Positions 14,976-64,000 of a stretch of 64,000 nucleotides of DNA are shown in pieces. The stretch is from Pachysolen tannophilus NRRL Y-2460. Its lineage: Eukaryota. A model generated the notes under the pieces. That model saw only the letters and a program-made list of their open reading frames with translations, made no database searches and was not told the origin of the DNA. Positions within the stretch are counted from its first letter, which is position 1. Each line of letters begins with the position of its first letter. The position numbers and the translations under genes were made by a program. The stretch spans positions 1 to 64,000 of the forward strand of contig KV454015.1 in assembly GCA_001661245.1 (NCBI GenBank), in the 5' to 3' direction.

Positions 14976-15277
14976 TGTTTCTTCCACCTTTTTTCTTTTT
15001 TTTTTTTTNTTTTTTATATTTTTATTTCTTACAACTTAATGTAAAATATAAATCAAAGAGGTTCAAGATCTTATTAAAAAAAAACCAATTGAATTAATAA
15101 AAGAAACAAGAATAAATACACTTGAAATTTAAATAGTGGCAAACATTAAAAGGGTACATAACATTTTTAATTAATTATTAAATGTGACTAAAACTTGAGT
15201 CGTTCTCGCAAACACACAGACACATGTCCCAATTAGGAAAGTGACATTGACACTTTTTATAAGGCCAATTTATCTTA

Positions 15278-20773: not shown

Positions 20774-22444
20774 CTAGTCCTGAAAGGAAGACTCTTTTTT
20801 GCCCTTACCAGAACTTTCCCTAAACTCATCTGCTGTGTTTTCCTTATCCAGCGTTTCACCATTATTTACACGAACAGTAAAACCACCTCTAGACTTTCTT
20901 CTCCCACGGCCACGGCCTCTACCCCGACCTCTTATAGGAGATCCATAATGACCCCCACGATTGGAAGATACACTTGAAGGTACATTTCCGTAAACAGAAA
21001 ATGTAGAATCACTACCTATTGAATCTTCTTCATTTAAATCCTCTTCTTCATCCTCAAATAGATGAGGGTTACTCACCTCTGATGTCACATCTTTTACTAA
21101 TTGGTCAAAATTGGTACTTCTATCCTTAGATAAATTTTTAATTCTTAATTTCAAATTTGTCGTTGTTCTGGGAGTTTTTGAAGCTAAATTTCCATTCCCA
21201 GTTTTTGGTGTATTGGAAGCACTACTGGCAGTCAGACCATTTAAACTAGGTCCACCTGTCAAAGGTGGCCTACCTCTCTTTTTCTGATTTTGCGGTTGTG
21301 GTTGACCATTATCCGATAATTGTACAAGTTTCTCTTGTTGATCTTGCTGCTGTAATTGCAAATGTGGAGGATTTGTTAAAGGAGGTGCATCTGCAGCATT
21401 ATTAGCCATCATTTCACCAACATATTGTAAATTTGGTTTAGCAAGATTTTTATTTGGATCTAAACCTTGAGCTTTCAAGTCGTTAATCACTTTTAGACCT
21501 ATTTCATCCTGATCAACATCATCCAATATTTCACCACATATTATGGCAGCATTATCTTGAGAAGTAAATTCCCTTTGATGAGCTAAGCGGCAATGATTGA
21601 GGAATCCTTGAGCACTTGAAAAATTACATCTATTACAATTTGAACAAGTTAATCTTACCAATACACCATCTGTTCTCTTGTATATACAATCACCTGAATA
21701 TCTTCCAGAGCTTGGTCTCAAAGATGAAGTATGAGATCTGGTTCTAGAATATAACGAATCATACGTTGCACCTTCAGATTGATTTGATGGAGGAGGCATT
21801 CTATTATCATCTAAATAGTTATCATTCCATGCCACTGATTTATGTCTATTATACAAGTTTTTAGTATCTTCTAATATCCTAAGATATTTCTTAGTGAATT
21901 CTGGTGATTCATTAGATAGCACTGATTTAGGATCAATATTATATTTATTTCTCAAGGCAATCATTTGTGCTTCACATTTCCCAATTTCTTCCTCAATTTC
22001 TGTTAACTGATTATGTTTCAACAAGATCTCTAAATCAAATTGATGGCTTATTACTTCTTTTACTCTTTTTGCCTTCTCTTCTGGTGATAAATTGGACTCT
22101 TTTTGTATTGATCTAGGTTCATCATAAATACCATCAATCACTCTCATTCCTTGGTTACCACTACGATTCTCACCATCACTCATAGTATTCCCAATATTCC
22201 CAACTTTTGAACTATTACCATATTCACTAGTCTCTTCTTTGAATTCAACATCATCCGATGCCATAGTTTCATCCAGTGGCGACCTGTTTTTGGAACTACC
22301 ATTACTATTCGTACTCTGAGTTTGTAAAACAGTTTCATCTGGATCAAGATGTTGGCCGCTTTGCCCGTTATTACGCACATCATCAACATTTTCATCATCA
22401 CCAGACAATGGCGACCTGACTGACTCTAACATGGATCCAGCCAT
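20774..22444 (-). CDS. AHC1: ADA histone acetyltransferase complex subunit Ahc1
   Basis: 'QFDLEILLKHNQL' and 'CSNCNRCNFSSAQGFLNHCRLAH' zinc finger; close to DDL1/SFM1 as in S. cerevisiae. First ATG is at 22444. Confidence 0.85.
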   Translation of the reverse strand: MAGSMLESVRSPLSGDDENVDDVRNNGQSGQHLDPDETVLQTQSTNSNGSSKNRSPLDETMASDDVEFKEETSEYGNSSKVGNIGNTMSDGENRSGNQGMRVIDGIYDEPRSIQKESNLSPEEKAKRVKEVISHQFDLEILLKHNQLTEIEEEIGKCEAQMIALRNKYNIDPKSVLSNESPEFTKKYLRILEDTKNLYNRHKSVAWNDNYLDDNRMPPPSNQSEGATYDSLYSRTRSHTSSLRPSSGRYSGDCIYKRTDGVLVRLTCSNCNRCNFSSAQGFLNHCRLAHQREFTSQDNAAIICGEILDDVDQDEIGLKVINDLKAQGLDPNKNLAKPNLQYVGEMMANNAADAPPLTNPPHLQLQQQDQQEKLVQLSDNGQPQPQNQKKRGRPPLTGGPSLNGLTASSASNTPKTGNGNLASKTPRTTTNLKLRIKNLSKDRSTNFDQLVKDVTSEVSNPHLFEDEEEDLNEEDSIGSDSTFSVYGNVPSSVSSNRGGHYGSPIRGRGRGRGRGRRKSRGGFTVRVNNGETLDKENTADEFRESSGKGKKESSFQD

Positions 22445-22684: not shown

Positions 22685-23593
22685 TTATACTATTAGTGCT
22701 CCATTTGTGTTTTGGAATGTATTGGTTTGTTTAGAATTTTTATTAAGCAAATTTTTTTTATTTCTATTATTATTATTACTTTCAGGATTTTTCATCTTTC
22801 TTATGTAATTCTTGTTAAAGATATTATTTTTGTGGTTTATCTTTTTTTCTTTATCGTTTAAACTGCTATCTGAATAAAAGGAAAACATTTTTTGTAAAAA
22901 AAGTTTATGTTGGCTTGTATTCATAAATTCATCATTACCTCCATTGCAATTTGTACCTTCTTGAGTAGATGTACTTAATTGTGAAATTCTTAATGATTCT
23001 AAATCACTTAGCGATAATCCAGCATCTTCAAGAACAGTAGAGTAACCGCTACTTTGTGATTCTAAATCTGAAGCGCTTTTGGAAGACAATAAATTTTCAT
23101 TTTGCAGAAGTAATGAAACTTCCTTTGTTGGGTCAAGATCAATATTTGAAATTGTCCTAGGAGGTGCAGGAGGTAACGAGGAAGGTGGCATTGATAATGG
23201 TACTTGCAGTACCAATGATATTGGTTCTGCAATATCATTCGAACCAGATTTGTGTGGAAACTTTCTTTGCCTTGGTCTACCTCTGGATTCTTCTGATTTT
23301 GGAAGTTTTGAAGTCTTTATTAAATTGCCATTTGAGATTTGTTGTTTTAATGCTTTTCTTTTCCCAATTCTTTTCATAATACCAGTTTTTTTAGTAGAAC
23401 CAACTGAACAATTGAAATCATCATCTTCTTTAACACCATTTCTGGGGGTTTCCTTCTCACTAGAAACTAATTTATCTTCATGGATTGGAATTTTCTTTTT
23501 AGCTCCAAATTTATTTTCAGTATTAATAATATTTGAATCTTTAACCCCCTTTCTCCCTTTTGTTTGAGTATTAGTTTTTTTAGTTAAAATCAT
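22685..23593 (-). CDS. Hypothetical Lys/Ser/Asn-rich protein with an AT-hook-like RGRPR motif
   Basis: Open frame of about 300 codons filling the AHC1-RCF1 interval; no recognisable domain; first ATG at 23593. Confidence 0.55.
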   Translation of the reverse strand: MILTKKTNTQTKGRKGVKDSNIINTENKFGAKKKIPIHEDKLVSSEKETPRNGVKEDDDFNCSVGSTKKTGIMKRIGKRKALKQQISNGNLIKTSKLPKSEESRGRPRQRKFPHKSGSNDIAEPISLVLQVPLSMPPSSLPPAPPRTISNIDLDPTKEVSLLLQNENLLSSKSASDLESQSSGYSTVLEDAGLSLSDLESLRISQLSTSTQEGTNCNGGNDEFMNTSQHKLFLQKMFSFYSDSSLNDKEKKINHKNNIFNKNYIRKMKNPESNNNNRNKKNLLNKNSKQTNTFQNTNGALIV

Positions 23594-27115: not shown

Positions 27116-27886
27116 ATGACAGAAATTTCCAATAGAGATAATCCGCCTCAAGTTCCAGATGGATGGAAGGCGGTTTTTGATGATCAATATCAAACATGGT
27201 ATTATGTTGAATTAAGTACGGGTAAATCTCAATGGGAACATCCTAATGAGATTCAAAATCAAAACAATGGTGGTGCTCCTGAAGGAGCTCCACCAAGTTA
27301 TGAATCTGCTTCAGGGAATTCAGGAACAAATTCTGATGCAAACTCCGGGAAGCAAAGTGATGAAAAGGGATTTTTCCAAAATTCACTGCAACAAGGTTAT
27401 TCACAATATCCTCAACTGCAACAAACACTGTATACAGCTGGTGCACCTCTGCTGCAACAACAACAGCAGCAACTGCTGCTGCAGAGTAGGTTTGGTGGTA
27501 TGGGTGGTGCATTGGCAGGTGCAGGAGGTGGTTTGCTATTAGGTACGTTGATTAGTGATTTTGCTGGCCATCACTCACATCGTCATAATTTCTTGGGTAG
27601 TGGTGGATTTGGCGGTCCTGGAGGTTACACCGGGTTCGGTGGTGGTTTTGGAGGGCACGGAGGTCCTCCACAAGGAGCCCCAGGTGGCGGCGGATTTGGA
27701 GGATTCGGCGGCTTTGGTGGTAACGGCGGTGGTGGTGGTGGCCACGGAGGCGGTCCAGGAGGCGGCGGTTTCGGTGGCTTTGGCGGTTTTGGTGGCGGCG
27801 GCCCAGGAGGCGGCGGCTTTGGAGGAGGCGGCTTTGGAGGCGGCCCTGGTGGCGGCGGCGGAGGTGGAGGTCCTGGTGGATTTTAA
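27116..27886 (+). CDS. WWM1: WW-domain protein with Gln-rich and Gly-rich tail
   Basis: 'NPPQVPDGWKAVFDDQYQTWYYV...SQWEHP' WW domain; 'PPSY'; glycine-zipper 'GGALAGAGGGLLLG'; adjacent to CDC4. Confidence 0.88.
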   Translation: MTEISNRDNPPQVPDGWKAVFDDQYQTWYYVELSTGKSQWEHPNEIQNQNNGGAPEGAPPSYESASGNSGTNSDANSGKQSDEKGFFQNSLQQGYSQYPQLQQTLYTAGAPLLQQQQQQLLLQSRFGGMGGALAGAGGGLLLGTLISDFAGHHSHRHNFLGSGGFGGPGGYTGFGGGFGGHGGPPQGAPGGGGFGGFGGFGGNGGGGGGHGGGPGGGGFGGFGGFGGGGPGGGGFGGGGFGGGPGGGGGGGGPGGF

Positions 27887-31857: not shown

Positions 31858-33780
31858 ATGATCATGTCACTGTCAGAATTTGTATATCAAGCATTAAAAT
31901 TACTTTTGAAAAGGCTGAATGCAGATTACGATGATGGTACTGATGAACCAACGATTTCAAATCCTACAGATGATGGTGATTTAGAAGAATCTAATCCAGT
32001 TGCTGAGGAGATTTTTTCTTCTTGGGCATTATTCATATTGTTATTCTTATTGTGTTCTGCTCTATGGTCATCTTTTTACTTACAGCAAAGGCGTATTAAG
32101 AGTATTCATGAAACTGTCTTGTCTATCTTTTACGGAATGGTGGTTGGTTTAATCATTAGAGTATCCCCTGGGCATTATATACAAAATGCTGTTAAATTTA
32201 ATAGTGGATATTTTTTCAATATCTTGTTACCACCAATTATTTTAAATTCTGGTTATGAATTGCATCAAGCTAATTTTTTCAGAAATATTGGATCCATTTT
32301 AACTTTTGCTATTCCTGGAACATTCATAAGTGCAATTGTTTTAGGAATCATCTTGTATATTTGGACAAAATTAGGATTAGAAAGTATAAATATTCAATTT
32401 GTTGATGCTTTAGCAGTTGGTGCAACATTAAGTGCAACAGACCCAGTCACTATTTTAAGTATTTTTAATGCTTATAAAGTAGACCCAAAATTATACACTA
32501 TAATATTTGGTGAATCATTATTAAATGATGCCATTTCCATTGTTATGTTTGAAACATGTCAGAAATTTCATGGAAAAGACCCTCAGTTTAGTTCTCTTAT
32601 TGAAGGTATTGGTATATTTTTGGTTACTTTCACAATCAGTTTGGTTATAGGATTAATACTGGGACTTTTAATTGCTTTAATTTTAAAACATTCTCATATC
32701 AGAAGATATCCTCAAATTGAAAGTTGTCTAGTATTATTATTTGCTTATGAATCTTATTTTTTTTCAAATGGTTGTCACATGTCTGGTATTGTTAGTTTAT
32801 TATTTTGTGGAATTACTTTAAAACATTATGCTTATTTTAACATGTCCAGAAGAACACAAATAGCAACCAAATACATATTTCAATTATTAGCACAATTATC
32901 TGAAAATTTCATATTCATTTATTTAGGATTGTCTTTGTTTACAGAAGTTGAATTGGTTTTCAAACCGTTATTAATAATAATAACTACAATTTCCATTTGT
33001 ATAGCAAGATATTGTTCTGTGTTCCCTCTATCAAGACTGCTCAATTGGGTTATGAGAAAAAGACAAATGGCAAGAGATTCAGGCTCAGTTCAAGATGAAA
33101 TGCCTTACAATTATCAAATGATGACCTTTTGGGCTGGCTTAAGAGGAGCAGTGGGTGTAGCTTTAGCAATGGGTTTACAAGGAGAGTTTAAAAGTACCTT
33201 ATTAGCAACTGTCTTGGTGGTTGTTGTGCTCACAGTCATTTTATTTGGGGGAACAACGGCTGGTATGTTAGAAATTTTAAATATCAAAACCGGTTGTGTT
33301 GATGAAGTGGAGAGTGATGACGAATTCGATATTGAAGCAGGTATAACCAGTGATAATGACGCTCAACGGGCTACAAAAATTGACAATAATATACCGATGT
33401 ATTCAACGTATTCAGATCAAGTTTATCGTTCAAGAACATCTTCACAAACCAATTTAGATGGTGACAACGTATACAGTGATGATGCAATGGATGTTGCATC
33501 AGTTTCGAACTCACCTGCAAACAGTGAACTTATTACAAATGATTTAGGTGACATTCCACCTTTAGCACAGACAGCAATGGTAAATTCGTCGTTCAATAAT
33601 CCACAGAGCATTAATAACAGTAATAACAGTATCAACAATAATAATAAGAGTGCTTCTTCAAATAATTTGATGAATTTAACGAACATTTTGGATGACCACG
33701 CCAAGTGGTTTATGGATTTTGACGAAAACATCATCAAACCTTTTGTTTTAGATAGCAATCAAAAAAGAAACGGTACATAG
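31858..33780 (+). CDS. NHX1: Endosomal Na+(K+)/H+ exchanger
   Basis: 'FFNILLPPIILNSGY', 'SATDPVTILSIF', 'FGESLLNDA', 'WAGLRGAVG'. Confidence 0.97.
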   Translation: MIMSLSEFVYQALKLLLKRLNADYDDGTDEPTISNPTDDGDLEESNPVAEEIFSSWALFILLFLLCSALWSSFYLQQRRIKSIHETVLSIFYGMVVGLIIRVSPGHYIQNAVKFNSGYFFNILLPPIILNSGYELHQANFFRNIGSILTFAIPGTFISAIVLGIILYIWTKLGLESINIQFVDALAVGATLSATDPVTILSIFNAYKVDPKLYTIIFGESLLNDAISIVMFETCQKFHGKDPQFSSLIEGIGIFLVTFTISLVIGLILGLLIALILKHSHIRRYPQIESCLVLLFAYESYFFSNGCHMSGIVSLLFCGITLKHYAYFNMSRRTQIATKYIFQLLAQLSENFIFIYLGLSLFTEVELVFKPLLIIITTISICIARYCSVFPLSRLLNWVMRKRQMARDSGSVQDEMPYNYQMMTFWAGLRGAVGVALAMGLQGEFKSTLLATVLVVVVLTVILFGGTTAGMLEILNIKTGCVDEVESDDEFDIEAGITSDNDAQRATKIDNNIPMYSTYSDQVYRSRTSSQTNLDGDNVYSDDAMDVASVSNSPANSELITNDLGDIPPLAQTAMVNSSFNNPQSINNSNNSINNNNKSASSNNLMNLTNILDDHAKWFMDFDENIIKPFVLDSNQKRNGT

Positions 33781-34105: not shown

Positions 34106-37100
34106 CTAGTTGTTAAACGTATCCACATATCCTCGTCTTGGGCCATTGCGTCCTTTTTTTCTTGTAGTTGAAGCAGCGCTTGCCATGTTTAGTATGTCAT
34201 CCAATTCATTTGATGAAGAAGTCTTGGCCCGCGCACTAGGAAAGTTCTGGTGAGCTATAGGAGGTGAAGCGGATGACGGACCTGATGAGTGCGTGGAAGA
34301 AAACGACATTGGAGGTAATGGAGCTTCAGAGTTTTTCTTTTTCTTAATAGTTGGAGGCGGAGGTGGTGGTGTTGACTCCGTTTCTTGTGATGACGCATCT
34401 TTATTTACCCATCTCTTTAGTTTCTCATCGAAATAAAATGAATTTGAATCACCTAACTTCGCCTTATATACCTTAGGCTCATCCTTGTTTGGATTCTGAA
34501 ATAATCCAAAAAGCCAACCACTATGTTGTTTACCTTCTTTCTCATTCTTTTTTCTGTCCTCTTCCTTTTGTCTTTGTTCTCTTTTTTCCTTATCCTCCCT
34601 CTCCTTCCTCGTTCTTTCCTCGCGCTCGCTATCTTTTTCTTCTTCTTCATCATCCTCATCTTCATCATGGACAACATCAAGATCATAATCATCATCAAAA
34701 TCAGTAGCACTAGCGTTTAAGGAACCAGTTTTTGATTCACCCGAAGGTTGATAAGCATTGCCGTATGGCCCCACACTTGGCGTAAATGTTGAGTTTCTTG
34801 GTTTGAAGCGATCAAAGTGAGATTCTGGTTCAGGGAAATCAGCCTTGAAATTATCATTGAGAGTCGCCGGAGCAAAATTACTATTCTCTTGCTTTCCTGT
34901 AACTTCCTCCAATTCCTCGTTTATATTATTGCTTTCTTCCATCAGTTTCGAATTGTTACTGTTTACTTTTGGAACACTATAACCGGCATACGAATATATA
35001 TCAAAATCATTCATAACTGAAGCATATATATTTTCAGTTTCACTTTTAGTCTCATCTTCAACATTCTTCTGAATTTCTCCCCCAGCAGGTGCATACTTAT
35101 TGGTGGAAGTCCTTCTAGACAGATTAGCCATGATATTTGAATAAGGATTATTGTATTTTATTGAGGCATTTCTAGAATTTTGCACCGGAACAGATGTCGT
35201 CTCAGAAGGAATATTAGAAGTTGGATTTAATGACTGAGAGTCGGCAACGCTTGGCTGCTTACTGATAGTAGAACTTCTTCTTGATTGACGCACTGATGAC
35301 AGATATAATGAATTCTGGAGTGGTTTTGTGGGCAAATCCGTGACTTTAGAGGGTGTTTGCTGCAGATGATGAAAAGCTTCAACTTCAGGAATATGCGGTG
35401 ATTTTGAATCAGAATGATCATTCAGCTGTTGATTTTGATCTTGCAGCTTGACCTGTTTCGAAACTGTAGAGTCATTATCACGTGTATATTTTGTCTCTGA
35501 GTTTGTATTTGATGAAACAATACGAGAGGGAGTAGCAGATAAAGCACTTCCTGACGGTAAACTTGAAACTAGCTGGCCCTTCAAATTTGGGTTTGATTTA
35601 TAATTTGGAAGGGGTGTACGAGTCGTCGAACCTTCAACAGGTATATTGGTCAGTGGTATTGGGGTATGCGCCAGAAAATTCGAATTGTGCTTGGAAAGCG
35701 ACAGGCTACTCCTTTTCAGAATTTCCGATCTTTGATTAAGAGAAAAAGTACCGATTTCTGATCCTCTTCTGCTCAAACCATCCTGTGGTATAGTAGAAGT
35801 TCCATTATCAAATTGATTTGAAGAAGATGCAGGGGCAGAGTTAACGAAAGCAGTGCTTTTTGCGTGAGGATTATTAAAATACCCTGTGGAATGTGATGTT
35901 GTTGTTAAATCCAAAGCTGACTGATTACGGGAAAGCGAAGGACTGAAGTTGTTGAAAGTATCATCATGTGGCTTTTTTGGAGTGGATTCTTCACCTGAAA
36001 TAAATTTGGTAAACCCTTTATCTAAAATACCTAATGCCACATTACCAAACCAATTAGATTCGCCTAAATCAGCAACTCTCGAATTAATATGGTTCAATTC
36101 AGTTAAAACGTTAGATGAGATTGGTATATTCTTCACTGACTTTATTAAAGAAGAGACATGATCAGTATATTTCCTTGCCTCTGTGGTTGCTCCATAGTCT
36201 AAAAGTATTGAAGCATGTTGGACATGTACTACTAATCTTTGATTGAAAGACTCTGGTGTCTCTGGTAACTTCAGATATTGGGTCAAAATTTCCGTTATAA
36301 TCAAATTTTCAATCAGTTGTGCATCCGAACGAACTAAGGAAAACACGATATCTGTGTTTGCTATAGGGAATGGACTCAATGGAATCCCCGCTAATAGTAA
36401 GCAAATATGACCCAAATCAATTCTATTTTTACGGATTAACAAACATCCAAATTGCGCTAAAAATTCATTCGCATTTGTCACATTTTTTAGTAATAGACTT
36501 AAAAACAAATTGAAATTTTCGATTAAAAACTGTAATGAATCACTATCTGAGTATAAATTTTGAATTAATGATTCGGCCTTACCAGTTAAAGTATGAAGTA
36601 AAAAGTAAAGAATTCGAGATGAAGGTGAAGTATCATTGAAGTAAGAGTTAAGAAATTGACTAGTGACATATTGTACTTCATTTTCACCAATTCCAGAAGC
36701 AAGTATCAAAGCTAAATCAAACATTTTATAAGAAAGAACTAAGTCTAAAGCTTCTTTCTTTTGCCCATTTTGCAAAAATAAAAATAAACGTACGTAGAAA
36801 TCTTTATTTAACAGAGTTAATTGATGATTTGCTGGAACAAAATTTGTTGGCATTGCAACATTAAAGGGGGCATTCTGGTCTAACAGTTTAATGATCGGTG
36901 TAAAATTGGATATAGTTCCATCGCCTGCTACTATTTCATTAGCAATTATAAAAAGCAACAATGAGTTGAAGTTTTGAGGGTCATTTTTAGTGATATCTTC
37001 TATCTTTTTAGTAAGATAATCAGTGATTTTCTTTTTGGTAAGACCTTTAACAGGGCCAAAAGACTTATCAATGGAATTTAAACTTATAAGCTGATCAATA

Positions 37101-40100
37101 TCAGTAACTTTAATAGTTCCTTTCAAAGAATTTCTTATAACCACTTTCTTTCCTCTACTGAAGCGAATAAATGAAACGTTACCGGGTTGTGTGTTTAGTT
37201 GATGAGATGGAGTAAAATTGGAAACACCATGAATATCTCTTGGCTGCAGTTCATATCTTGAATAACCATCAGTGGGTAAACTCGGATTTTGAGCCTTATT
37301 CTGCAGGTTATATCCTGAAATAGGAGCAGCAGTAGCAATTTGTGGAGGGGCTGGATAGCCTTGAGAAACTGAAGTTGGGGCCTGAAAATTATTACTAGTA
37401 GATGCTGCAATTTGCTGAACAGGTTGATAATTTGCGGCTTGTGGAAATCCAACAGTAGGCGATTGCAAATGTACATTTTGCTGCTGCTGTTGATTCAAAA
37501 CCGGAGAATAAACAGAGTTGCCGTTTGATAATTCAGAAGGGCCATATGGATTTTGGGTATTAACAGCCTGATGAATAGCTTGTTTGTGTTGTTGCTGTTG
37601 CTTTTGCTGTTGCTGTTGCTGCATATCAATGTCTTGTGCAGCATTATAAGGTTTGAAACTTGGTGGCACGGCTGCTGCGTATTTAGAATTCAACGGAGCA
37701 TAATGATTCTGCAGATAACTTGAAACTTTTTTCTCCTGTGGAGGAGGTTCGAAGGAATTAGAAGTTTGAGAATGAGAAACACTTCTTGCAGTATGTGTGG
37801 CAGCTGGAGTTAACACACCAGATTCCAGTTCCAGAAAAGGAAATTGTTGATGTTGAGGCAGATACGGAGATAGTTGATAACTTTGTTGTTGCTGAGTTTG
37901 TGGTGGTGGCACATATTGCTGTGGTTGATACTGTTGTTGTTGATGCTGCGGCAGTAACTGAGGTGGCTGCTTTTGTAAGTTGTACAGCGGTTGCTGTTGT
38001 GCTGGAAGGTATGACCCATTAGGAGGACCCTGGGTTATATTTAAACTAGTTGGAGGAATGTTATTATGAGCCATTCCAAATGTAGCAGCACTATGAACAG
38101 GAGAATATTGACCCAACGAACTGCTTGCATCTGAAACCTTCCTACTATGATCTGTTATTGAAAGAGCTCTTGTTGGAGCTGGAGGAGAAAATTTAGAACT
38201 AGTTAAACTTAAATTTGGCGATGGACGTTGCGGCTGAGGGTGTGATATTGGTGGAGAACCAAAATTATGTTGCAGAAAAGATTGTGGACGAAATGCTGCA
38301 TTTCTTGACATTGCCAAATGTGGAGGTGGTGGTAATGGATTATTTTGTTGATGCTGCAGATGTTTTTTCTCCAAGAGAGAAGAATAAGGATTATCTTTTT
38401 TCCTTGGAACTAAATTACTTGATGAAATAATTGGTAAATCTTCAAAAAATTTCTTTGGCAGCTTCTTATTTTGATCTTTTTGTGGTTGTTGTGATATATA
38501 TTGCTGCTGTGGTTGTTGTTGTTGTTGTTGTTGTCGATTAATGTTATAATAAGCTGGTTCATATATGTTTCCAGTGCTACGATTATTCATGTTTTCACGA
38601 TTTCTATATTGAGATGCAGTAGTTGAAATGGATTCGTTTGAAGAAAATAAAGATTCTTGAAAAATATTTGAAATATTTGACTGCAGAAATGGTTCATTTT
38701 CATGCTCTTGGCCATATGGATGGTCATGTTCTGGCAAGAGATCATTATCGTCATCAAGAAATCCAAATTCTGTTTCATTTTCTTCTTCTTTATCAAAATC
38801 AGGTATGATCACCTCTTTTGTAGATTCTTTTTGCTCTTGAATTTCTTTCTCTTGATTTTCTTGCTTTTGATTTTGATTTTCTTGATTTTGATTTTCTTGA
38901 ATTTCATGCTCTATAGACTCTTCCTGTTGTTGTTGCTGGTTATTCCATGGTTCCCAATGTCCTTCATCATTGTCCTTGTTATGTTCTTCCTTGGTTTCTA
39001 CGTGTTTAGCTGATTCGTTTGGCGTATTTGTATCTAAATTTGAAGTTACATGCTTAGCTGAAATTGGATCCAATTCAACATCCAAGTCTTCTTCCCATGG
39101 CAATTTTTCATTTTTGCTTGAATTAAATTCTAATTTTTCCTTTGGAGTAGATGATTCCAGCAGGCCTTGTTGAAAGCCGTGCATGTCTTTGAGATCTTTC
39201 TGTTCTTTCGGTTCTTTTAGTTCTTTCGAGTTTTCTAGTTCTTGCAGTTCTTGCAGTTCTCGCAGTTCTTGTAGATCTTGCAGATCTTGCAGGTCCAGTA
39301 AATTTATATTTAGCGATTGGTTCGGTGACAGAGTAGAAATTTGTTCAACTGGATGATTAGTTGGTTTTGTAAATTCTAAATTTTCTTCCCAAGGTAATGC
39401 ATTATTATCACTAATTTCAATAGGTTCGGTCTTTTCTTGAAATATCCCTGTACCTTTAATTTCTTGGAAAGATGGAGAATTTGGTTGTTGCTGTGGTTGT
39501 ATTTCTTCATTTTTTTCTTCAAGTAATGTTTCTTCTTCTTGCTCCCATGGCAATTTTCCAGTTTCGGGCAGCTCAGATGCAAATAAATTTGATAATTGTT
39601 CTTTATCATTAATAGGAGACTGTGGCAGATTTCCAATTTCATTATTAGTGTTAACTGAAGAATTGTCAATTGCGCCTTGATTCAGTAGCACTTTTGATTC
39701 ATCAACTTCTTTAGTATCTAAAGTATTTGTAATATCTTTATTATGTTTGCCGCTTAGAAGTTCCAGTTCTGCTGAACCTTGTTCTAATTCCAAAGTGCTT
39801 TGCTCAATTCCTTGCTCTAGCAAAGGTGAAACCAACACTCCATGCTTCTGTTCATGCTTCTCTTCATCGATATCTTGAGCGCTGTCATTAGCGCTATTAT
39901 TAGCGCTAATGATAGCATTTTCTTCAACGTTTTCTTCACTTTTATCTTTACCGCCGTTGAAAAGCTCATCTCCGCCACTTGAACTTTTTTCTGAAAATCC
40001 CGCCACCGACTGCGACTCTTTCAATTCATTACTAAACTCCACACCATCAGAACCACCAGTCTCATTCGTAACTTCATCTCCAAAATTAACTCCCGCCCTC

Positions 40101-40207
40101 AAATTCACATTATCAATTGTCAATGGTTCTTGTTGAGATTCAATTTTTTCTTTTAGATTTTCATCAATAGAACCCGCCAACTCTTTTCCATCACCATCAA
40201 CAGACAT
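34106..40207 (-). CDS. SEC16: COPII coat assembly / ER exit-site protein Sec16
   Basis: About 2030 aa, mostly disordered, with a central helical domain and C-terminal 'YKAKLGDSNSFYFDEKLKRWVNK...PPPPP...RRGYVD'. First ATG is at 40207. Confidence 0.9.
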   Translation of the reverse strand: MSVDGDGKELAGSIDENLKEKIESQQEPLTIDNVNLRAGVNFGDEVTNETGGSDGVEFSNELKESQSVAGFSEKSSSGGDELFNGGKDKSEENVEENAIISANNSANDSAQDIDEEKHEQKHGVLVSPLLEQGIEQSTLELEQGSAELELLSGKHNKDITNTLDTKEVDESKVLLNQGAIDNSSVNTNNEIGNLPQSPINDKEQLSNLFASELPETGKLPWEQEEETLLEEKNEEIQPQQQPNSPSFQEIKGTGIFQEKTEPIEISDNNALPWEENLEFTKPTNHPVEQISTLSPNQSLNINLLDLQDLQDLQELRELQELQELENSKELKEPKEQKDLKDMHGFQQGLLESSTPKEKLEFNSSKNEKLPWEEDLDVELDPISAKHVTSNLDTNTPNESAKHVETKEEHNKDNDEGHWEPWNNQQQQQEESIEHEIQENQNQENQNQKQENQEKEIQEQKESTKEVIIPDFDKEEENETEFGFLDDDNDLLPEHDHPYGQEHENEPFLQSNISNIFQESLFSSNESISTTASQYRNRENMNNRSTGNIYEPAYYNINRQQQQQQQPQQQYISQQPQKDQNKKLPKKFFEDLPIISSSNLVPRKKDNPYSSLLEKKHLQHQQNNPLPPPPHLAMSRNAAFRPQSFLQHNFGSPPISHPQPQRPSPNLSLTSSKFSPPAPTRALSITDHSRKVSDASSSLGQYSPVHSAATFGMAHNNIPPTSLNITQGPPNGSYLPAQQQPLYNLQKQPPQLLPQHQQQQYQPQQYVPPPQTQQQQSYQLSPYLPQHQQFPFLELESGVLTPAATHTARSVSHSQTSNSFEPPPQEKKVSSYLQNHYAPLNSKYAAAVPPSFKPYNAAQDIDMQQQQQQKQQQQHKQAIHQAVNTQNPYGPSELSNGNSVYSPVLNQQQQQNVHLQSPTVGFPQAANYQPVQQIAASTSNNFQAPTSVSQGYPAPPQIATAAPISGYNLQNKAQNPSLPTDGYSRYELQPRDIHGVSNFTPSHQLNTQPGNVSFIRFSRGKKVVIRNSLKGTIKVTDIDQLISLNSIDKSFGPVKGLTKKKITDYLTKKIEDITKNDPQNFNSLLLFIIANEIVAGDGTISNFTPIIKLLDQNAPFNVAMPTNFVPANHQLTLLNKDFYVRLFLFLQNGQKKEALDLVLSYKMFDLALILASGIGENEVQYVTSQFLNSYFNDTSPSSRILYFLLHTLTGKAESLIQNLYSDSDSLQFLIENFNLFLSLLLKNVTNANEFLAQFGCLLIRKNRIDLGHICLLLAGIPLSPFPIANTDIVFSLVRSDAQLIENLIITEILTQYLKLPETPESFNQRLVVHVQHASILLDYGATTEARKYTDHVSSLIKSVKNIPISSNVLTELNHINSRVADLGESNWFGNVALGILDKGFTKFISGEESTPKKPHDDTFNNFSPSLSRNQSALDLTTTSHSTGYFNNPHAKSTAFVNSAPASSSNQFDNGTSTIPQDGLSRRGSEIGTFSLNQRSEILKRSSLSLSKHNSNFLAHTPIPLTNIPVEGSTTRTPLPNYKSNPNLKGQLVSSLPSGSALSATPSRIVSSNTNSETKYTRDNDSTVSKQVKLQDQNQQLNDHSDSKSPHIPEVEAFHHLQQTPSKVTDLPTKPLQNSLYLSSVRQSRRSSTISKQPSVADSQSLNPTSNIPSETTSVPVQNSRNASIKYNNPYSNIMANLSRRTSTNKYAPAGGEIQKNVEDETKSETENIYASVMNDFDIYSYAGYSVPKVNSNNSKLMEESNNINEELEEVTGKQENSNFAPATLNDNFKADFPEPESHFDRFKPRNSTFTPSVGPYGNAYQPSGESKTGSLNASATDFDDDYDLDVVHDEDEDDEEEEKDSEREERTRKEREDKEKREQRQKEEDRKKNEKEGKQHSGWLFGLFQNPNKDEPKVYKAKLGDSNSFYFDEKLKRWVNKDASSQETESTPPPPPPTIKKKKNSEAPLPPMSFSSTHSSGPSSASPPIAHQNFPSARAKTSSSNELDDILNMASAASTTRKKGRNGPRRGYVDTFNN
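39186..39298 (-). repeat. Degenerate 9-bp coding minisatellite in SEC16 (CTGCAAGAA-like, about 12 units)
   Basis: Minus-strand units ctgcaagat / ctacaagaa / ctgcgagaa / ctgcaagaa / ctaaaagaa / ccgaaagaa. Confidence 0.75.
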
Positions 40208-40675: not shown

Positions 40676-42577
40676 ATGAATGGAGAAGGTGACTATTTGA
40701 TTAGTGTTAAATTGGTTTCAGTTTATGGTCTTGTTCGGAATGAGTTTCGGGTATCTCCTGATGATAAGGTTAAAGATATTAAATTAATAATTATTAATAA
40801 TTTGGTTGATGGATATGATGTTAGTGTGGATAAAGTTAAGTTGATTTATTTTAGTAGGATTTTGGATAAGGATGATGATTTGGTGAAGAATGTTTTGAAT
40901 GTGAATGAGTCGAATAAGGGGAATGTTTTCATTTTACATTTTACGTTGATCTTGAATGATGTTCAGGCGGCAAGCGGAAGAAGAAGTGGTAGTACAAGAT
41001 TTGGACAGGTAGCGGTAGGAGAAGAGCCTAATATCGGTAGTAGTAGTAGTACTAGCAATAGCGCCAGTAATACCACCAGTAGCGCTGATAGCGCTACTGC
41101 TGCTAACGCTGCTACTGGTGCTACTGGTGTTGGTGCCACTGCTACTAACGCTGCTACTGCTAATGCAGATTCTTCTGCTGGTACTAGAAGTGCTGATGAT
41201 ATTCAAGAAATGCCTATAGGTGAGTTCAAATTGGTTTTATCCGATGGAAGAGTAGCTACTTCTGGTACACAGTCTTTTGATATTTTAAAATTGAATGATG
41301 AAAGTTTTTTCGTCAATCAATTGGATTTATCATCAAAATTTTATGAAATTTCAATAACACTTCCAAATAATCAAATTAAAAAAATTAAACTTTCATCAAA
41401 TCAATGTATTATTAACGATACAGGAGATCATACACCTTACCTATTGATCAATAGAACAGGTGTTAACCTGATACAGCAAGTACTTGGAGTTCAACTTTCA
41501 CAAGTAAGATTAACAATAATGCCACCAATTGCAAATACAGATAATAGAGGGTATAATAGAATTTATAATGGAAGGGTTAATAGATGGTATAGGTGGGAAA
41601 GAAATGGTAATAATAATAATAATAATAACAATAATAACAATAATAATGAAATGAATGAAAATCAAATTTGGGATGGAATTAGATTATTTGGACATAATTT
41701 TAATAATATTAGATGGAGAGAATTACCATTATTGATACATGATTATTCTATTTATATTATTAATCTTTTATATACAAGTACTTTACTTGTTTTCAGAAAC
41801 GGTGGATTTAAAAGATTTTTCAAATTTTTGATAAATTTTAGTAAAATTTTTTTATTTTTAAGTTTATTAAATTATAAATATGAATTATCAAAGAAAAGAC
41901 CAATTCTTTTCAATTTTTTGTTATTGATATCAATATTATACAATATATTGAATGAAGAAAATTTGAATTGTTTTGAACAAATTGTTAATTTGGATTTACA
42001 TGGAATTCCAAGAAGAGAACTTATTATGAATTCTATTAATAAATTGAAAAATTATAGATCACTAATCTATACAAGATTACAAATGATTAGTACTAAAGTT
42101 ATTATTTTCATAATAGGAAATAATAGAAATGGATTAAACGTTCAAGGTGATAATAATGAAAATAATGCAATAATGAAATTAGTCAATAATAACAATAATT
42201 TTAATTTTTTCATCAAATATTTTATAATTTTACTACAAGATATATTATGTCTCTTTGTCACTTTAATACCGGACTACTATATCATTTTTAACTATGAAAT
42301 TATTAGAAAACACTCAAAAGTCGAAAAGGACAGAATGGAACATTCACAAAGAAACGAAAATGGGAACTTGACAATAGATAACTCCAACAATGTTGCTGTA
42401 GCATCAGGAATTGCATTAGGACATGCCACTAGAGAAAACTCTAGAGGAAACTCAATAGATAGCTCAACAGATAGCTCAGAAGATGCCTCAAGAACAATCA
42501 CAGCAAACAGGCACAGAAACATTGGCCAAGGTACCGATACTACCATTGCTCAAACCGCTGCTCAAGACACTCAATGA
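40676..42577 (+). CDS. USA1: Ubiquitin-like-domain ER membrane protein, Usa1/HERP-like ERAD scaffold
   Basis: N-terminal UBL-like segment ('VKDIK...VKLIYFSRIL') and C-terminal TM segments. It lies in the RAD52-NDC1-RCF1-USA1-TSA1 synteny block. First ATG is at 40676. Confidence 0.65.
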   Translation: MNGEGDYLISVKLVSVYGLVRNEFRVSPDDKVKDIKLIIINNLVDGYDVSVDKVKLIYFSRILDKDDDLVKNVLNVNESNKGNVFILHFTLILNDVQAASGRRSGSTRFGQVAVGEEPNIGSSSSTSNSASNTTSSADSATAANAATGATGVGATATNAATANADSSAGTRSADDIQEMPIGEFKLVLSDGRVATSGTQSFDILKLNDESFFVNQLDLSSKFYEISITLPNNQIKKIKLSSNQCIINDTGDHTPYLLINRTGVNLIQQVLGVQLSQVRLTIMPPIANTDNRGYNRIYNGRVNRWYRWERNGNNNNNNNNNNNNNEMNENQIWDGIRLFGHNFNNIRWRELPLLIHDYSIYIINLLYTSTLLVFRNGGFKRFFKFLINFSKIFLFLSLLNYKYELSKKRPILFNFLLLISILYNILNEENLNCFEQIVNLDLHGIPRRELIMNSINKLKNYRSLIYTRLQMISTKVIIFIIGNNRNGLNVQGDNNENNAIMKLVNNNNNFNFFIKYFIILLQDILCLFVTLIPDYYIIFNYEIIRKHSKVEKDRMEHSQRNENGNLTIDNSNNVAVASGIALGHATRENSRGNSIDSSTDSSEDASRTITANRHRNIGQGTDTTIAQTAAQDTQ

Positions 42578-52105: not shown

Positions 52106-53608
52106 ATGTACTTTTACAAAGCTTTTTCCGTTTTAGCTTTGGTCAAACTAGTTACTGCAACAAATACGTTTGGTCTCGTTGCTGTTAACGAAAATGCAAG
52201 AAACCTTCAACATCAAATTAGAGTTAAAGATAACTCGTTAGTAATTGATTATGGCTCTTTTGAAGACAATTCGTTAGAAGCAGAAATTAAAGAAGACGGT
52301 TCTTTAAATACTAAACACGGAAAAATTGCACCTCATCCTGCAGGTCATTTAGCAATTACTCAAACAAATTTTGAGAACGTTAAAGGATTCACTATTGAAG
52401 ATGACCTCTTAAAACTTCATGGGTCTTCAAAATTTTTTGCTTGTCCAAGAACAGATAATGAATATACCTATAATGTTGTCAGAATTGAAGGTGACCATGT
52501 TTGTCCTGGTGGATACAGGCTCCAATTATTTTCGGTTTCTAAAGATGAACCGATTTTAGGTTTTGAAAAACGGTTAGAAAGAAGATGGAGTGAAAGCGAA
52601 GATGATGATGATTGCACTAAATCTAGCGAAGTTGTTGCTACAACCACCAAAGAAGAAGATTGTGATGAGTCAGCAACTACATGGTTCGCTACTACTCAAA
52701 GTTGGGAGACTGAAGTTCCTTCAACATCATGGGAAGAAACTTTTGAATCTGTGACAACTGCTGCCCCAGCTTCAACTTGGGCTTCTAACAGCACATTATA
52801 TTCTTCAACGTCTGCTGGAACTTCTTTTGCTACTTCAAGTGAACCCCCTACTGTAGCAGAAACATCAGAAGCAGCAAGTTCAACTGTTTATACTTCAACT
52901 ACAACCGTTACAAGTATCTATAAAACTGTTACTAGCACTATTATAAATTGTGAGACTTCAATTGGTGGAAATATCAGCACTGAAAGTTTTGAATCAAGCG
53001 TCTTTCCAACACCAACCACATTGTCAACTTTACTGCAAAGTTCAAGTGTTAGTGAAAGTTCTGAAGCTCCAACCACTGGAAGCTTGACCACTACTGAAAC
53101 ATTTTCTTCCGAAGTAGGTAATTACAGTACACCACTCACTTCAACTACAATTGCTTCAAGTTTCTCATCAATTGTTCCAGTTAGTTCTACAATTAACTCG
53201 AAGTCGACATTCTTAAGCAGTTTAGTAACTGAAAGTCACTCTATAGTAACAAAAACTTCCCAGTACGTTATTATTCCAACTTCAAGTTCAGCTTTAAATT
53301 CATCTGAATGGATTTCAACTTCTGAATACGAATCATCTTTTGAATGGATACCTTCATCAACCGAATGGAGTTTGGAAAACCCATCAATAACCGAAGAGGA
53401 ATGCGATACAGCTACAAAAACTTATAATCATACATTCACAACTGACGAAGGATGGGAGAGTACCATTGATCCTTCAATTCCAAAACCTGCATTAGATCAC
53501 GATCATGAAAGCACTGAACAGAATCACATTCCTGTTCCGACAAGTACATCTGAAGAAGATTGCGATGAGTCTACTAAAACTGTTGCTCCTACTGTCAGAG
53601 GTGTCTGA
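52106..53608 (+). CDS. Secreted Ser/Thr-rich cell-wall protein
   Basis: Signal peptide; N-terminal domain of about 130 aa with two Cys ('FFACP', 'HVCPGG'); dibasic 'KR..RR' sites; Ser/Thr stalk with repeated EEDCDE motifs. Confidence 0.8.
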   Translation: MYFYKAFSVLALVKLVTATNTFGLVAVNENARNLQHQIRVKDNSLVIDYGSFEDNSLEAEIKEDGSLNTKHGKIAPHPAGHLAITQTNFENVKGFTIEDDLLKLHGSSKFFACPRTDNEYTYNVVRIEGDHVCPGGYRLQLFSVSKDEPILGFEKRLERRWSESEDDDDCTKSSEVVATTTKEEDCDESATTWFATTQSWETEVPSTSWEETFESVTTAAPASTWASNSTLYSSTSAGTSFATSSEPPTVAETSEAASSTVYTSTTTVTSIYKTVTSTIINCETSIGGNISTESFESSVFPTPTTLSTLLQSSSVSESSEAPTTGSLTTTETFSSEVGNYSTPLTSTTIASSFSSIVPVSSTINSKSTFLSSLVTESHSIVTKTSQYVIIPTSSSALNSSEWISTSEYESSFEWIPSSTEWSLENPSITEEECDTATKTYNHTFTTDEGWESTIDPSIPKPALDHDHESTEQNHIPVPTSTSEEDCDESTKTVAPTVRGV

Positions 53609-54167
53609 TTGACTTTAAAAAGTCAACATTGGAGGCTGGAAACAAAAACAAAACTAAAACTTTAACCAAAACAGAAAGTTCAGAGAAATGGTGAATAATT
53701 ATTATCCAAATTTTGTCTAACTAAATTTTCTATTGGAAAGAGCCAAAAGAAAAAAAAAGAAAAAAAAAGCAAAAAAAGTTATCCGAAATACATAAAACAC
53801 ATAATTTATACCTTTTTTTTTTATATTTTATTTTAATACTTTTAAAACCATTTTTCGTTTGTTTTACCAATTTATATGCGTATTATGGACAACTTCTAAT
53901 ATATATATTTTTTTTTCTGAATTTCACTAAATCGAAAAAACCAGCTGAAAGCTGGAAGAAACAAAGTTGAATGAATAAAATTCTAACAAAATGTTCGTAG
54001 TAAAAAAAAAAACAAAAAAAAAAAAATTAATGGGTGTCAAGCCAAGTTTTCCTCAGTAAAGAGTGAAGCAAAATGAGCTGTAATAGAATAAGATTAAAGA
54101 AACTTTTGAAATATTTAAGAAAACACAAAAAGTGAAAAATAAGATGAAAAAAAAAAAAAAAAACAAA

Positions 54168-54205
<38 letters not shown>

Positions 54206-54755
54206 NNNNNNNNNNNNNNNNNNNNNNNNNNNNNNNNNNNNNNNNNNNNNNNNNNNNNNNNNNNNNNNNNNNNNNNNNNNNNNNNNNNNNNNNNNNNNNN
54301 NNNNNNNNNNNNNNNNNNNNNNNNNNNNNNNNNNNNNNNNNNNNNNNNNNNNNNNNNNNNNNNNNNNNNNNNNNNNNNNNNNNNNNNNNNNNNNNNNNNN
54401 NNNNNNNNNNNNNNNNNNNNNNNNNNNNNNNNNNNNNNNNNNNNNNNNNNNNNNNNNNNNNNNNNNNNNNNNNNNNNNNNNNNNNNNNNNNNNNNNNNNN
54501 NNNNNNNNNNNNNNNNNNNNNNNNNNNNNNNNNNNNNNNNNNNNNNNNNNNNNNNNNNNNNNNNNNNNNNNNNNNNNNNNNNNNNNNNNNNNNNNNNNNN
54601 NNNNNNNNNNNNNNNNNNNNNNNNNNNNNNNNNNNNNNNNNNNNNNNNNNNNNNNNNNNNNNNNNNNNNNNNNNNNNNNNNNNNNNNNNNNNNNNNNNNN
54701 NNNNNNNNNNNNNNNNNNNNNNNNNNNNNNNNNNNNNNNNNNNNNNNNNNNNNNN
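54206..54755. other. Assembly gap (550 N) flanked by poly-A
   Basis: Run of N bases. Confidence 1.
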
Positions 54756-54813
54756 AAAAACAAAAAAAAAAAAAAAAAAAAAGAAAAGGAAATACAATCC
54801 ATTATACATCTAT

Positions 54814-57063
54814 CTACTCATCTAAATCTTTAGTAAAAGTTTTAATGAATTGAAACGTTTCACTCATCAACGCAACAACTCCATTATTACCTTTTTCTTC
54901 CTCAGTGCCCTTGGTTTTCTTAATAACATTTTTATCATCAGAGAAATAGGCATCTACCTCATTTTCAACTTTAGAAAAACCTTCATCGTAAATTACATTC
55001 CTCAAAGCCAAAATTAATTGAGGAGAGAATTCATTGTACCATCTATGATTCCAAACAGACAATTTAACACAAACATTTAATAATTTTAAATCTATGTCTT
55101 GTATTGATCTTCTAATAAATTCAGGTGTTAATTTAGAATTTTTTTCTTGTGAAGATTGTTCATAATTTTTTAATTTCAGTTTTTCTGCTTGATAATAAGC
55201 TAATACTTTTCTTGAACTTCTAATTGAAAATCTACCAGCTAAAGCTTTTTCAAAAGCGGATGCAGCTTCTTTAAAATTTCTTAGTCTATAGGCAACTAAA
55301 CCTAATAATTCCCATTCTAATGATGTTTTCTCATAAGACATTTGTTGTGCTTGAAAATGTACTTGTTCCGCTTGCCACATTGTATATTGTCTTAAATCTT
55401 CATATAATAACATAAACAAATTATCCAACCATCTTTCACATAATCTTTTTTTCTTAAATTCTTCAATAATCTGTTCACTATTGCTTGCATTTTTACTCTG
55501 TCCGCCAGAATTAACAGATTTTAATGATTGAGTTGTACCATTTGTTACTGAAGTTGATAATGGATGTTGTGATCCTGAAATATCCAACTTACTATTTGTT
55601 GCATCTTTCTTATATTCATCTTCCATAACGAAAACTTTTGCTCTATATCTTAATAAACTTTCCCAGCCAGTTTTATGAACTATTTGAGTTAATAATTCAT
55701 AACTTTTAGAAAAAGTTGTTTTCAAATTATTTGCAGGTAAATTAACTAAAGCAGGATCAACTTGTTTTTGTTCAGCAATAACTTCTTCAGCGTGTAATGT
55801 TGAAACTTCATCTAAAGTGACATCCATTGGTAAAGGTAAATGTAAAGCATTTGGATTTTTAATATTTGTACATCTTCTTAAATGGAATTTTTCCTTATGA
55901 GTAACCATTGGACAAGAATTTAAAGTTAACAAGGCATTTTCAATGTCATTGTTTGCAATATATGTTTTCACCAAGATTGACCAAGGTAAAAATTCTGATG
56001 GAGCAGATCTAACAGCACGCATTGCTGCAACTAATGCATAATCCAATACATTTTTATCAAGACAATATTTTGCTTGTAAAGTTAATAAACTTGCATCTCT
56101 TGGATTTAATTTAATACCATCATGCATTAATTGGACCAGCTTTACTTCTTCATCTTTCATTAATAAGACTTGAACAATTAAGCTTATAACGCTTGGATCT
56201 TTTAAATGTAATTCTTCCAAGATTTTCATAGCATAATCATATTCATTAGTTAATTCCAAGACTTTTAAAAAACAATCAACAAGATAATTATTTGTATTAG
56301 TTGTTAATTGAATAGTTTCATTTGATCCTAATTTATAACCATCAAAGAATAAAGTTTTAAAAGCATCTAAAAAATATCTAACATCTTCAATTGTTTTAAA
56401 ATAATTAATTTTTCTAGTTTCTACCAATTGACCAGTAAAATCTTCTTCTTCATCATCATAAGTCAATATACATCTAACTAAACTTGTTAAATAAGTTTCC
56501 AACCATAATCTATCATTATCTGCAGAATAAGTATCACCATTTATATCTACAAATGATGATTCAATTCTCCCCGGTATATGAACTGTTACTCTAGTATCCA
56601 TCTTACTAAAAGCATTAAATGCACAATATGTAGATTGAATAACATTAAAATGTTTATGCTTACCATACCACAATTGTGGTTGGAAATTAATTACTTGAGC
56701 AATTCCTTGTAAATGAACAGCAACTTGTGCAGCATTTGAAACATCAACTCCAGTATAATATAAAAAAGTTGTAACTTTTTTCTCCGGATTAGACGCTGAT
56801 ACTTTACATAATTGTAAAAGATCTGGTGGTCCTAAATCTTGAATATTAGCCAACCGGGTAGTTCTTTGTTCAATCGATTGGTTTGGATACTCTTCAACTA
56901 CTCTATATTAAATCAATACCATAAAAGAAAAAGAAAAAAAAAAAGCAATGAAAGTTAGTATTTTCCTCTCGTATAAAAATATAAAAATATAAAAAGTACC
57001 AAGAATTATTTCTTATTATCAAATTACGTACTCTGGAATAGATCCTTGAGTTGTTGGAAGCAT
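54814..57063 (-). CDS. BCH1: Exomer cargo adaptor (ChAP family, Bch1/Bud7), 2 exons
   Basis: Exon 1 57063-57032 (MLPTTQGSIPE); intron 57031-56903 (GTACGT..TACTAAC..TAG); exon 2 in frame to 'QDLGPPDL', 'ALLTLNSCPM', 'KRLCERWLDNLFMLLYEDL'. Adjacent to TAF9. Confidence 0.93.
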
Positions 57064-62843: not shown

Positions 62844-64000
62844 CTAAATAATCGGAGCAGCTGTTTCAGTGTATTCTACACCATCACCGGTCACATTATA
62901 TTTTTTATTCACATAGTCGTCAATATCCACAACGTCATTTGGAACTTTAAAGAACTTGTTTTTCCAGAATCCGTCAGAATCCAATATTTCTTTGTTAACC
63001 AATTTGTAGTGACCCAATTTTGGTAAAACCAAGGCCCAAATGACCCAATAAACGAATCCTACAAAGAAAACACCCCAAGCAGCAACACAGTGGGTCCAGT
63101 ATGGCATACTAGTGTATACTGATTGTCCGTCATCAGGTGGAATATATGGAGCAATCACCAAGTATAATGATGCTAATGCGAAAAAAAAGGTAACGATAAT
63201 TGGTGATCTGATTGGTGGTTTCCATTCTATTTCTCCTCTATGAGCTCTGAAATGCAACCATAATAAACCTATAGCCACAAAGAAATTAATAATATTTAAT
63301 GGATATGAAATCAAGTTTAAAACAAAATTATAAGCATCTCCCAGGGGTGGTGCTACAATAGTGATAACACAAATTAACCAATGTTCGAATAATCCCACAA
63401 ATGGTGAATTAAATGGTCTTTGAGTAGCAAAAAGTTTGGAAAATGGTAAAACACCTTCACGACCCAATTGTTGAACAATTCTACCTTGTGAAAAGATAAC
63501 AGACATGACATTACCTAAGGCTGAAAGAGCAACAAATACAGAAATAGCCTTTTGAGCTTTTGTTCCAAAAGCAATTTTGAAAAAATCTGCAGCTATAATT
63601 TGACCCGAAGATGAAATAACATCTTTTGGTATAACTGCAAAATAAGCAATGTTAACAAACATATAAATAATTGATATAACAACTAATGCAGCAGGAGCAG
63701 AGTATTTTAAAGCTCTAACAGGGTCTTTAACTTCACTTAAAGAATAATTAACATTTGAGTATCCAATATAAGACCAAATAACGTTATATAATGCTGTGAC
63801 AATACCATAGCCAGTTGGTTTAGAACCAGAAAATGCATCAGAGAAATTGTGAGTCGGTTCATAAGTACCAGTCTTAAGACCTCCACCTAAGGCGACCCAT
63901 CCAGTTACAGAAATAACAATAATAACGGCAACTTTGAAAACACCCAATAAATTTTGTAAATACATTCCAGCTGTTACATTGACTCCATGAACCAAAAATG
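62844..64000 (-). CDS. MUP1: High-affinity methionine permease (LAT/APC family), 5' part outside the window
   Basis: 'ALYNVIWSYIGYSN', 'LSEVKDP', 'GNVMSVIFSQGR', 'LGREGVLPFS', 'GDAYNFVLNLISYP'. Confidence 0.88.
   Translation of the reverse strand, partial: FLVHGVNVTAGMYLQNLLGVFKVAVIIVISVTGWVALGGGLKTGTYEPTHNFSDAFSGSKPTGYGIVTALYNVIWSYIGYSNVNYSLSEVKDPVRALKYSAPAALVVISIIYMFVNIAYFAVIPKDVISSSGQIIAADFFKIAFGTKAQKAISVFVALSALGNVMSVIFSQGRIVQQLGREGVLPFSKLFATQRPFNSPFVGLFEHWLICVITIVAPPLGDAYNFVLNLISYPLNIINFFVAIGLLWLHFRAHRGEIEWKPPIRSPIIVTFFFALASLYLVIAPYIPPDDGQSVYTSMPYWTHCVAAWGVFFVGFVYWVIWALVLPKLGHYKLVNKEILDSDGFWKNKFFKVPNDVVDIDDYVNKKYNVTGDGVEYTETAAPII

Follow-up and report, generated by a model that had tools for sequence, protein, structure and literature searches.

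Alanine as the most probable reading of in-frame CTG codons in a 64-kb window of yeast nuclear DNA

In the present study, we followed the codon CTG through the window, that is, the whole stretch of 64,000 nucleotides at positions 1 to 64,000 of contig KV454015.1, with a single CTG in the gene for a ChAPs (Chs5-Arf1-binding) protein as the focal site, and found that this codon is most probably read as alanine (Ala) (probability roughly 0.93), as in the clade of yeasts known for this reading (the CUG-Ala clade), so that the proteins call for translation table 26. A preliminary description of the window, made from its letters, had proposed the same decoding, clade and table, and its proposal is borne out by the best fit over 12 alignment columns, by the deposited proteins and by exact translation matches. 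The window would thus be nuclear DNA of a CUG-Ala-clade budding yeast of the order Alaninales, with Pachysolen tannophilus the likeliest species; in this clade, by a mechanism taken from the literature, a tRNA-Ala with its anticodon mutated to CAG would read CUG as Ala. In the window, CTG occurs at normal density, avoids conserved leucine (Leu) columns and is best fitted by Ala. The reassignment itself is already known, having been published in 2016 with tRNA and proteomic proof, and the window shows no new kind of event. What it provides is a small, independent, sequence-only confirmation of CUG-Ala, together with a practical consequence, namely that table 26 is needed for every protein of the window, since otherwise a wrong Leu enters 25 of the 29 open reading frames (ORFs), 39 times in Sec16 alone.

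Homologue columns at the CTG codons

The 29 ORFs comprise 15,062 codons, among which CTG occurs in frame 95 times; at least one CTG is found in 25 of them (86%), with a mean load of 3.28 per ORF. For each CTG column, the residues of homologues were read from query-anchored phmmer alignments in which CTG had been masked as X, using 119 homologues each for UBA3 (own copy excluded), the DDHD phospholipase and Nhx1, 150 cluster representatives for ChAPs, and 40 metagenome loci for Mup1, 36 of which cover the CTG column. The tally was then taken over the 12 CTG columns, from five proteins, that have at least 30 homologues each; sites are named below by protein and codon number, and their residue counts are given in Table 1. 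Summed over these columns, the log likelihood (lnL) was highest for Ala (-31.4), followed by valine (Val, -38.3), isoleucine (Ile, -40.0), serine (Ser, -41.4) and Leu (-43.1). Whichever of the 12 columns was left out, Ala came out on top, by a margin of between 2.8 and 9.9. In control assignments made with the same alignments, 59 of 60 other sense codons received their correct residue, the sole miss being CGG with its one column, while for random 11-column sets of true Leu, Ala, Ser, Val and Ile the right residue came back in no fewer than 99.4% of 2000 draws, and true Leu sets were called Ala zero times. Such a tally had been put forward as a check in the preliminary description, and beside the best fit of Ala it gives a Leu majority in 1 of 12 columns and a Ser majority in none.

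The standard code, under which an AT-rich yeast would use CTG as a rare but ordinary codon for Leu and the Ala-like sites would be chance substitutions, can call on the fact that CTG is no scarcer than CTC or CTA (95 codons in the window versus 40 and 81, respectively), on the frequent location of CTG in hydrophobic columns, and on the Leu of the human homologues at UBA3-333 and NHX1-394. Yet none of the 102 columns with at least 80% Leu carries CTG (reported totals: TTA 64, TTG 24, CTA 6, CTT 3 and CTC 1), an absence with P = 0.0068 given the CTG share of 13/272. Leu makes up 10% or less in 9 of the 12 CTG columns, compared with 12 of 247 columns at true Leu codons (P = 2.9e-10), and a Leu majority is found at 1/12 against 147/247 (p = 0.0005). 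Conversely, columns with an Ala majority account for 2 of the 12 CTG codons and for none of the 247 Leu codons (Fisher p = 0.002). With a likelihood 11.7 units under that of Ala, and with further difficulties from codon neighbourhoods and database translations described below, we regard an ordinary Leu codon as very improbable.

The same columns speak against CTG as Ser (table 12), the decoding used by the CUG-Ser1 (Candida/Debaryomyces) and CUG-Ser2 (Ascoidea/Saccharomycopsis) yeasts. The low G+C content and the polar contexts of CTG are compatible with that reading, and UBA3-35 has a sizeable Ser minority (23/115). Nevertheless, its likelihood lies 10 units under that of Ala, the columns with a Ser majority number 0/12 for CTG versus 60/175 for Ser codons (p = 0.01), the mean Ser share is 0.06, and Ser makes up 10% or less in 10 of the 12 columns (P = 2.6e-7). 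Candida albicans and its CUG-Ser1 relatives resemble the window in that the same codon has changed its meaning, by way of a CAG-anticodon tRNA that originated in a different isoacceptor family, in that their genomes are low in G+C, and in that their CTG lies mainly at non-conserved polar sites; they differ in the residue, Ser, for which the window has no majority column, and in phylogenetic position. In a quick single-gene NHX1 tree, which contained no named Ala-clade sequence, the window and its nearest relative (P0243, 84% identical) formed a lineage of their own, with deeper forks unresolved; this lineage stood outside the CUG-Ser1 group (SH-aLRT 96) as well as outside the Pichia/Ogataea group, and was not paired with Saccharomycopsis. 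A Ser reading is, in our estimation, every bit as improbable as the standard one.

On account of the likelihoods, the absence from conserved-Leu columns and the counts of majority residues, the window's own columns thus reject Leu and Ser and prefer Ala. The individual sites from which the idea had originally been drawn fared unevenly. All six coordinates named in the preliminary description are indeed in-frame CTG codons, as read directly from the ORFs of the window. Its statement that homologues carry Ala at these sites was right for the focal ChAPs-155 (Ala in 85 of 107). At UBA3-35 it was right in part, Ala being present as a minority (24/115) versus phenylalanine (37) and Ser (23). For Mup1 it was likewise right in part: of the two forms given for the motif, PPPGDA is the prevailing one (proline, Pro, in 28 of 36) and PPAGDA was seen once only. 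The motif FPLSKAINW given for fungal Nhx1 did not hold, the column of NHX1-394 being made up of phenylalanine 69, Leu 39 and Ala 4 out of 119. The judgement that UBA3-269 is usually Val, and hence uninformative, was correct (106/119). Oxygenase-310, the remaining named site, lies opposite an alignment gap in the PDB ACC oxidases, the homologues with which it was compared. NHX1-20, which the description did not list, proved to be another Ala column (55/73). A word of caution is in order here: most CTG columns are not Ala columns, and arguments from an Ala presumed at a given site are therefore unreliable.

Observations against alanine and the case for mixed decoding

A considerable number of observations weigh against Ala and need to be set out together. 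Compared with genuine Ala codons, CTG is found in an Ala-majority column at 2/12 versus 57/110 for GCN (p = 0.03), and in a column with 10% Ala or less at 8/12 versus 16/110 (binomial P = 5.7e-5), while none of the 46 columns with at least 80% Ala carries CTG (P = 0.007). About half of the CTG columns are hydrophobic (V 106/119, I/V/M 113/119, F/L 108/119 and L/I/V 72/94, in one-letter code), and in such columns Leu would be the conservative reading. The likelihood counts related homologues as independent, and ChAPs-155 together with NHX1-20 supplies much of the Ala signal. In alignments to the Protein Data Bank (PDB), which offer 1-3 distinct, mostly distant homologues per column and are too shallow for a tally, Ala was met at zero CTG columns: UBA3 is matched by F, V and L, NHX1 by T or Y and by L, and further residues, again none of them Ala, are P in Mup1, R at oxygenase-174, T and F in Sec16, and F and Y in Med6. 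As for a decoding tRNA, ARAGORN gave no tRNA gene within the 64-kb window, and Rfam gave no match of any kind.

Two further points of this kind concern the surroundings of the codon. Over all ORFs, CTG stands in more polar surroundings than do the codons for Leu (p = 1.5e-8), Ala (1.7e-10) or Ser (1.2e-6), and the difference from Leu persists once Sec16 is removed (Mann-Whitney p = 0.006); the contexts of CTG being unlike those of all three residues, neighbour hydropathy rejects an ordinary codon, the Leu of the standard code included, and cannot choose the residue. Within Sec16, a 9-base tandem repeat (39186-39292, minus strand, about 12 copies, 80% matches) of the form CTG-CAA-GAW has, at one and the same repeat position, CTG in 6 copies and CTA, a codon for Leu, in 3. 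By table 26 it is translated as (A/L)-Q-(D/E) and by the standard code as a regular (LQE)n, under which the exchange of CTG and CTA would be synonymous; this alternation is a point in favour of the standard code. A search for Leu at Ala-dominated columns in the nearest relatives, which would be a sign of untranslated CTG = Ala, returned at most 1-2 such cases per protein and gave no usable signal.

Part of this could be accommodated if decoding were mixed, with CTG standing for Ala and in part for Leu, on the model of the stochastic Ser/Leu reading of Ascoidea asiatica. It would account for the many hydrophobic CTG columns, the columns do divide into an Ala type and a Leu/Val/Ile/Phe type, the Sec16 repeat holds both CTG and CTA, and stochastic reading of CUG is reported to exist in another yeast (PMC6041473). 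Ascoidea asiatica also resembles the window in being a case of CUG reassignment within Saccharomycotina with heterogeneous CTG columns. Two competing tRNA(CAG) species, though, are required in that yeast, and the window gives no sign of dual decoding. In mass spectrometry (LC-MS/MS) of P. tannophilus by Mühlhausen et al. 2016 (PMC4937558), Ala was found at 97.2% of the 907 CUG positions that had full support, and the short variable loop of the tRNA is argued there to prevent mischarging. Moreover, CTG is missing from conserved Leu columns, and a one-step origin from Leu or Val codons explains the hydrophobic columns as well. We thus consider mixed decoding highly improbable, if marginally less so than a plain Leu or Ser codon.

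Independent of the columns, the deposited sequences favour Ala. Database copies of three window proteins (P0002, P0122 and P0242) have Ala at 3, 4 and 4 CTG codons, respectively (11/11). By exact look-up in NCBI/UniRef, 2 of 6 table-26 translations are present, those of the oxygenase and Rad52 ORFs, whereas 0 of 4 translations by other tables were found there (three by table 1, including that of the oxygenase, and one by table 12, of Rad52); the absence of the former three counts against the standard code, and that of the latter, for an ORF deposited in its table-26 form, against Ser. The four table-26 translations that had no exact match in NCBI/UniRef (Sec16, sugar transporter, ChAPs and WW protein) are probably explained by differing gene models. 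The deposited Ala is, to be sure, an annotation choice and no independent measure of decoding, and has to be added to the reservations above. Through these translations, the window is nevertheless linked with an organism that is accepted as a CUG-Ala user.

The window agrees with the published picture in most respects. NCBI taxonomy places Pachysolen tannophilus in the order Alaninales, and PMC4937558 describes for it a tRNA(CAG) with G3:U70 and A73, as well as a genome whose 5288 genes hold 16,824 CUG, a mean of about 3.2, with 80% of the genes affected, to which the load of the window (3.28 per ORF, 86% of ORFs) is closely similar. The window is also like P. tannophilus in that its CTG fits Ala best and avoids conserved Leu columns, and in that its deposited proteins carry Ala. 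It is unlike it in having an Ala majority at just 2 of 12 columns, admittedly a small sample, where the same paper speaks of CUG 'mainly at conserved alanine positions'. The preliminary description had named Pachysolen, Nakazawaea and Peterozyma as the CUG-Ala clade, in agreement with the text cited from Krassowski et al. 2018 (PMC5951914), in which the Ala clade is extended to the latter two beside Pachysolen; no feature of the window contradicts membership. Sister genomes from the same 2016 sequencing effort were among the database hits for UBA3, the DDHD phospholipase and Nhx1, although a named close relative was not, a pattern that fits P. tannophilus itself as the source.

Where CTG accumulates and how the codon may have been refilled

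The distribution of CTG within the window gives rise to a thought about its origin. Most of the CTG codons would be arrivals after the reassignment, or relics, at sites tolerant of change, and this would explain both their presence in Val, Leu and Pro columns one mutation away and their presence in disordered segments rich in glutamine (Gln). Going further, we suggest tentatively, and with less than even confidence, that CUG-Ala is not interchangeable with GCN-Ala and that single mutations of CAG, CCG, GTG and Leu codons, at sites that tolerate them, are refilling the captured codon. In 4 of the 12 CTG columns, the residue prevailing among homologues is one that a single mutation separates from CTG (L, V, M, P, Q or R), compared with 4 of 110 GCN columns (p = 0.003). 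The Mup1-like permease may serve as an illustration: Pro is kept by 28 of 36 relatives in the motif APPPGDAYNF, and CTG is one transition from CCG, so that, as judged from these sequences, the CTG appears to be a Pro to Ala change within an otherwise invariant motif.

The most conspicuous accumulation is that in Sec16, in which 39 CTG stand beside 97 GCN codons, as against 56 CTG and 601 GCN summed over the remaining 28 ORFs (Fisher p = 2.5e-9); expressed as a share of Ala codons, CTG makes up 39/136 in the disordered Sec16 and 56/657 elsewhere. The CTG codons of Sec16 lie mostly within parts that are disordered and rich in Gln, Pro and Ser. Across the window, a Gln codon (CAA or CAG) directly follows 21 of the 95 CTG codons, the corresponding figure after Leu, Ala or Ser codons being about 4%, and the density of CTG per ORF is correlated with that of Gln (Spearman rho 0.51, p = 0.004). 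CAG codons that turned into CTG within runs of Gln are one possible source of this association. These figures, like the CTG share in Sec16, lend support to the proposed refilling.

If the refilling scenario were true genome-wide, CUG would mark recent non-synonymous change, such as the Pro to Ala change in APPPGDAYNF of Mup1, and would be a direct record of the way in which a codon spreads through a genome again after its reassignment. The scenario is partly in print already, as Mühlhausen and Kollmar 2014 (PMC4986446) state that CUG in Pachysolen avoids highly conserved Leu and Ser positions.

Gene content of the window and the ChAPs gene model

With a G+C content of 30.8%, the window is AT-rich budding-yeast nuclear DNA with about 29 ORFs, mostly without introns, and a Pfam match was obtained for 25 of them, including UBA3, Nhx1, Rad52, Sec16, Ndc1, Med6, TAF9, ChAPs and a Mup1-like permease. 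The coordinates of the features discussed above are collected in Table 1.

Table 1. Positions of the ORFs and in-frame CTG codons discussed, with the residues (one-letter code) of homologues at each CTG column
Feature	Positions	Strand	Homologue column or other content
ChAPs ORF	54814-56601	-	Pfam PF09295, E 9.5e-123
ChAPs codon 155 (focal), EEVK[CTG]VQLMH	56137-56139	- (+ strand reads CAG)	A 85, G 14, S 6, V 1, I 1 (n=107)
ChAPs codon 475	55177-55179	-	variable: D 6, N 5, G 5, Q 4, K 4, A 4 (n=41)
NHX1 codon 20	31915-31917	+	A 55/73; A in nearest relative P0243
NHX1 codon 268	32659-32661	+	I 69, V 36, M 8, T 4 (n=119); zero A, L, S
NHX1 codon 394	33037-33039	+	F 69, L 39, A 4, V 4 (n=119)
UBA3 codon 35	16472-16474	-	F 37, A 24, S 23, L 4 (n=115)
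UBA3 codon 269	15770-15772	-	V 106, A 6, I 5 (n=119); zero L, S
UBA3 codon 333	15578-15580	-	L 33, E 20, A 12, Q 11 (n=119)
DDHD phospholipase codon 274	9726-9728	+	L 49, I 15, V 8, A 3 (n=94)
DDHD phospholipase codon 337	9915-9917	+	variable: E 26, N 17, K 11, S 10, A 7 (n=105)
DDHD phospholipase codon 684	10956-10958	+	variable: I 13, K 12, S 10, V 10, A 5 (n=87)
Mup1-like permease codon 219, APP[CTG]GDAYNF	63342-63344	-	P 28, F 6, S 1, A 1 (n=36 metagenome loci)
2OG-Fe(II) oxygenase codon 310, in frame	1298-1300	-	alignment gap versus PDB ACC oxidases
Sec16 ORF	34106-40207	-	39 of 95 window CTG
WW-domain protein ORF	27116-27886	+	Gln run broken by 8 CTG
WW-domain protein, CTG cluster	27386-27481	+	the 8 CTG within the Gln run

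Four ORFs of 302-633 amino acids (20774-22444, 22685-23593, 40676-42577 and 52106-53608) matched no Pfam family at E <= 1e-5; several of them are rich in Ser and asparagine, with CTG in polar contexts. A run of 550 N at 54206-54755 and a single N at 15009 represent assembly gaps, and the ORFs listed at 54027-54833 were discarded as artefacts, since they cross the N stretch.

As regards the ChAPs gene, no stop codon interrupts its frame over the roughly 100 codons that precede the ATG at 56601, as far as about 56904 (56602-56904, minus strand). This extension contains no ATG, and the alignment of homologues sets in at about 56895-56904 with their residue 7-12. The true start of the gene is probably located in a short upstream exon, i.e., the gene would have a 5' intron, and such an exon would account for the translation of the ATG-initiated ORF being missing from the databases. 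Finally, in the WW-domain protein, the interrupted Gln run is followed by a long Gly-rich tail of the GGFGG type, a prion-like composition.

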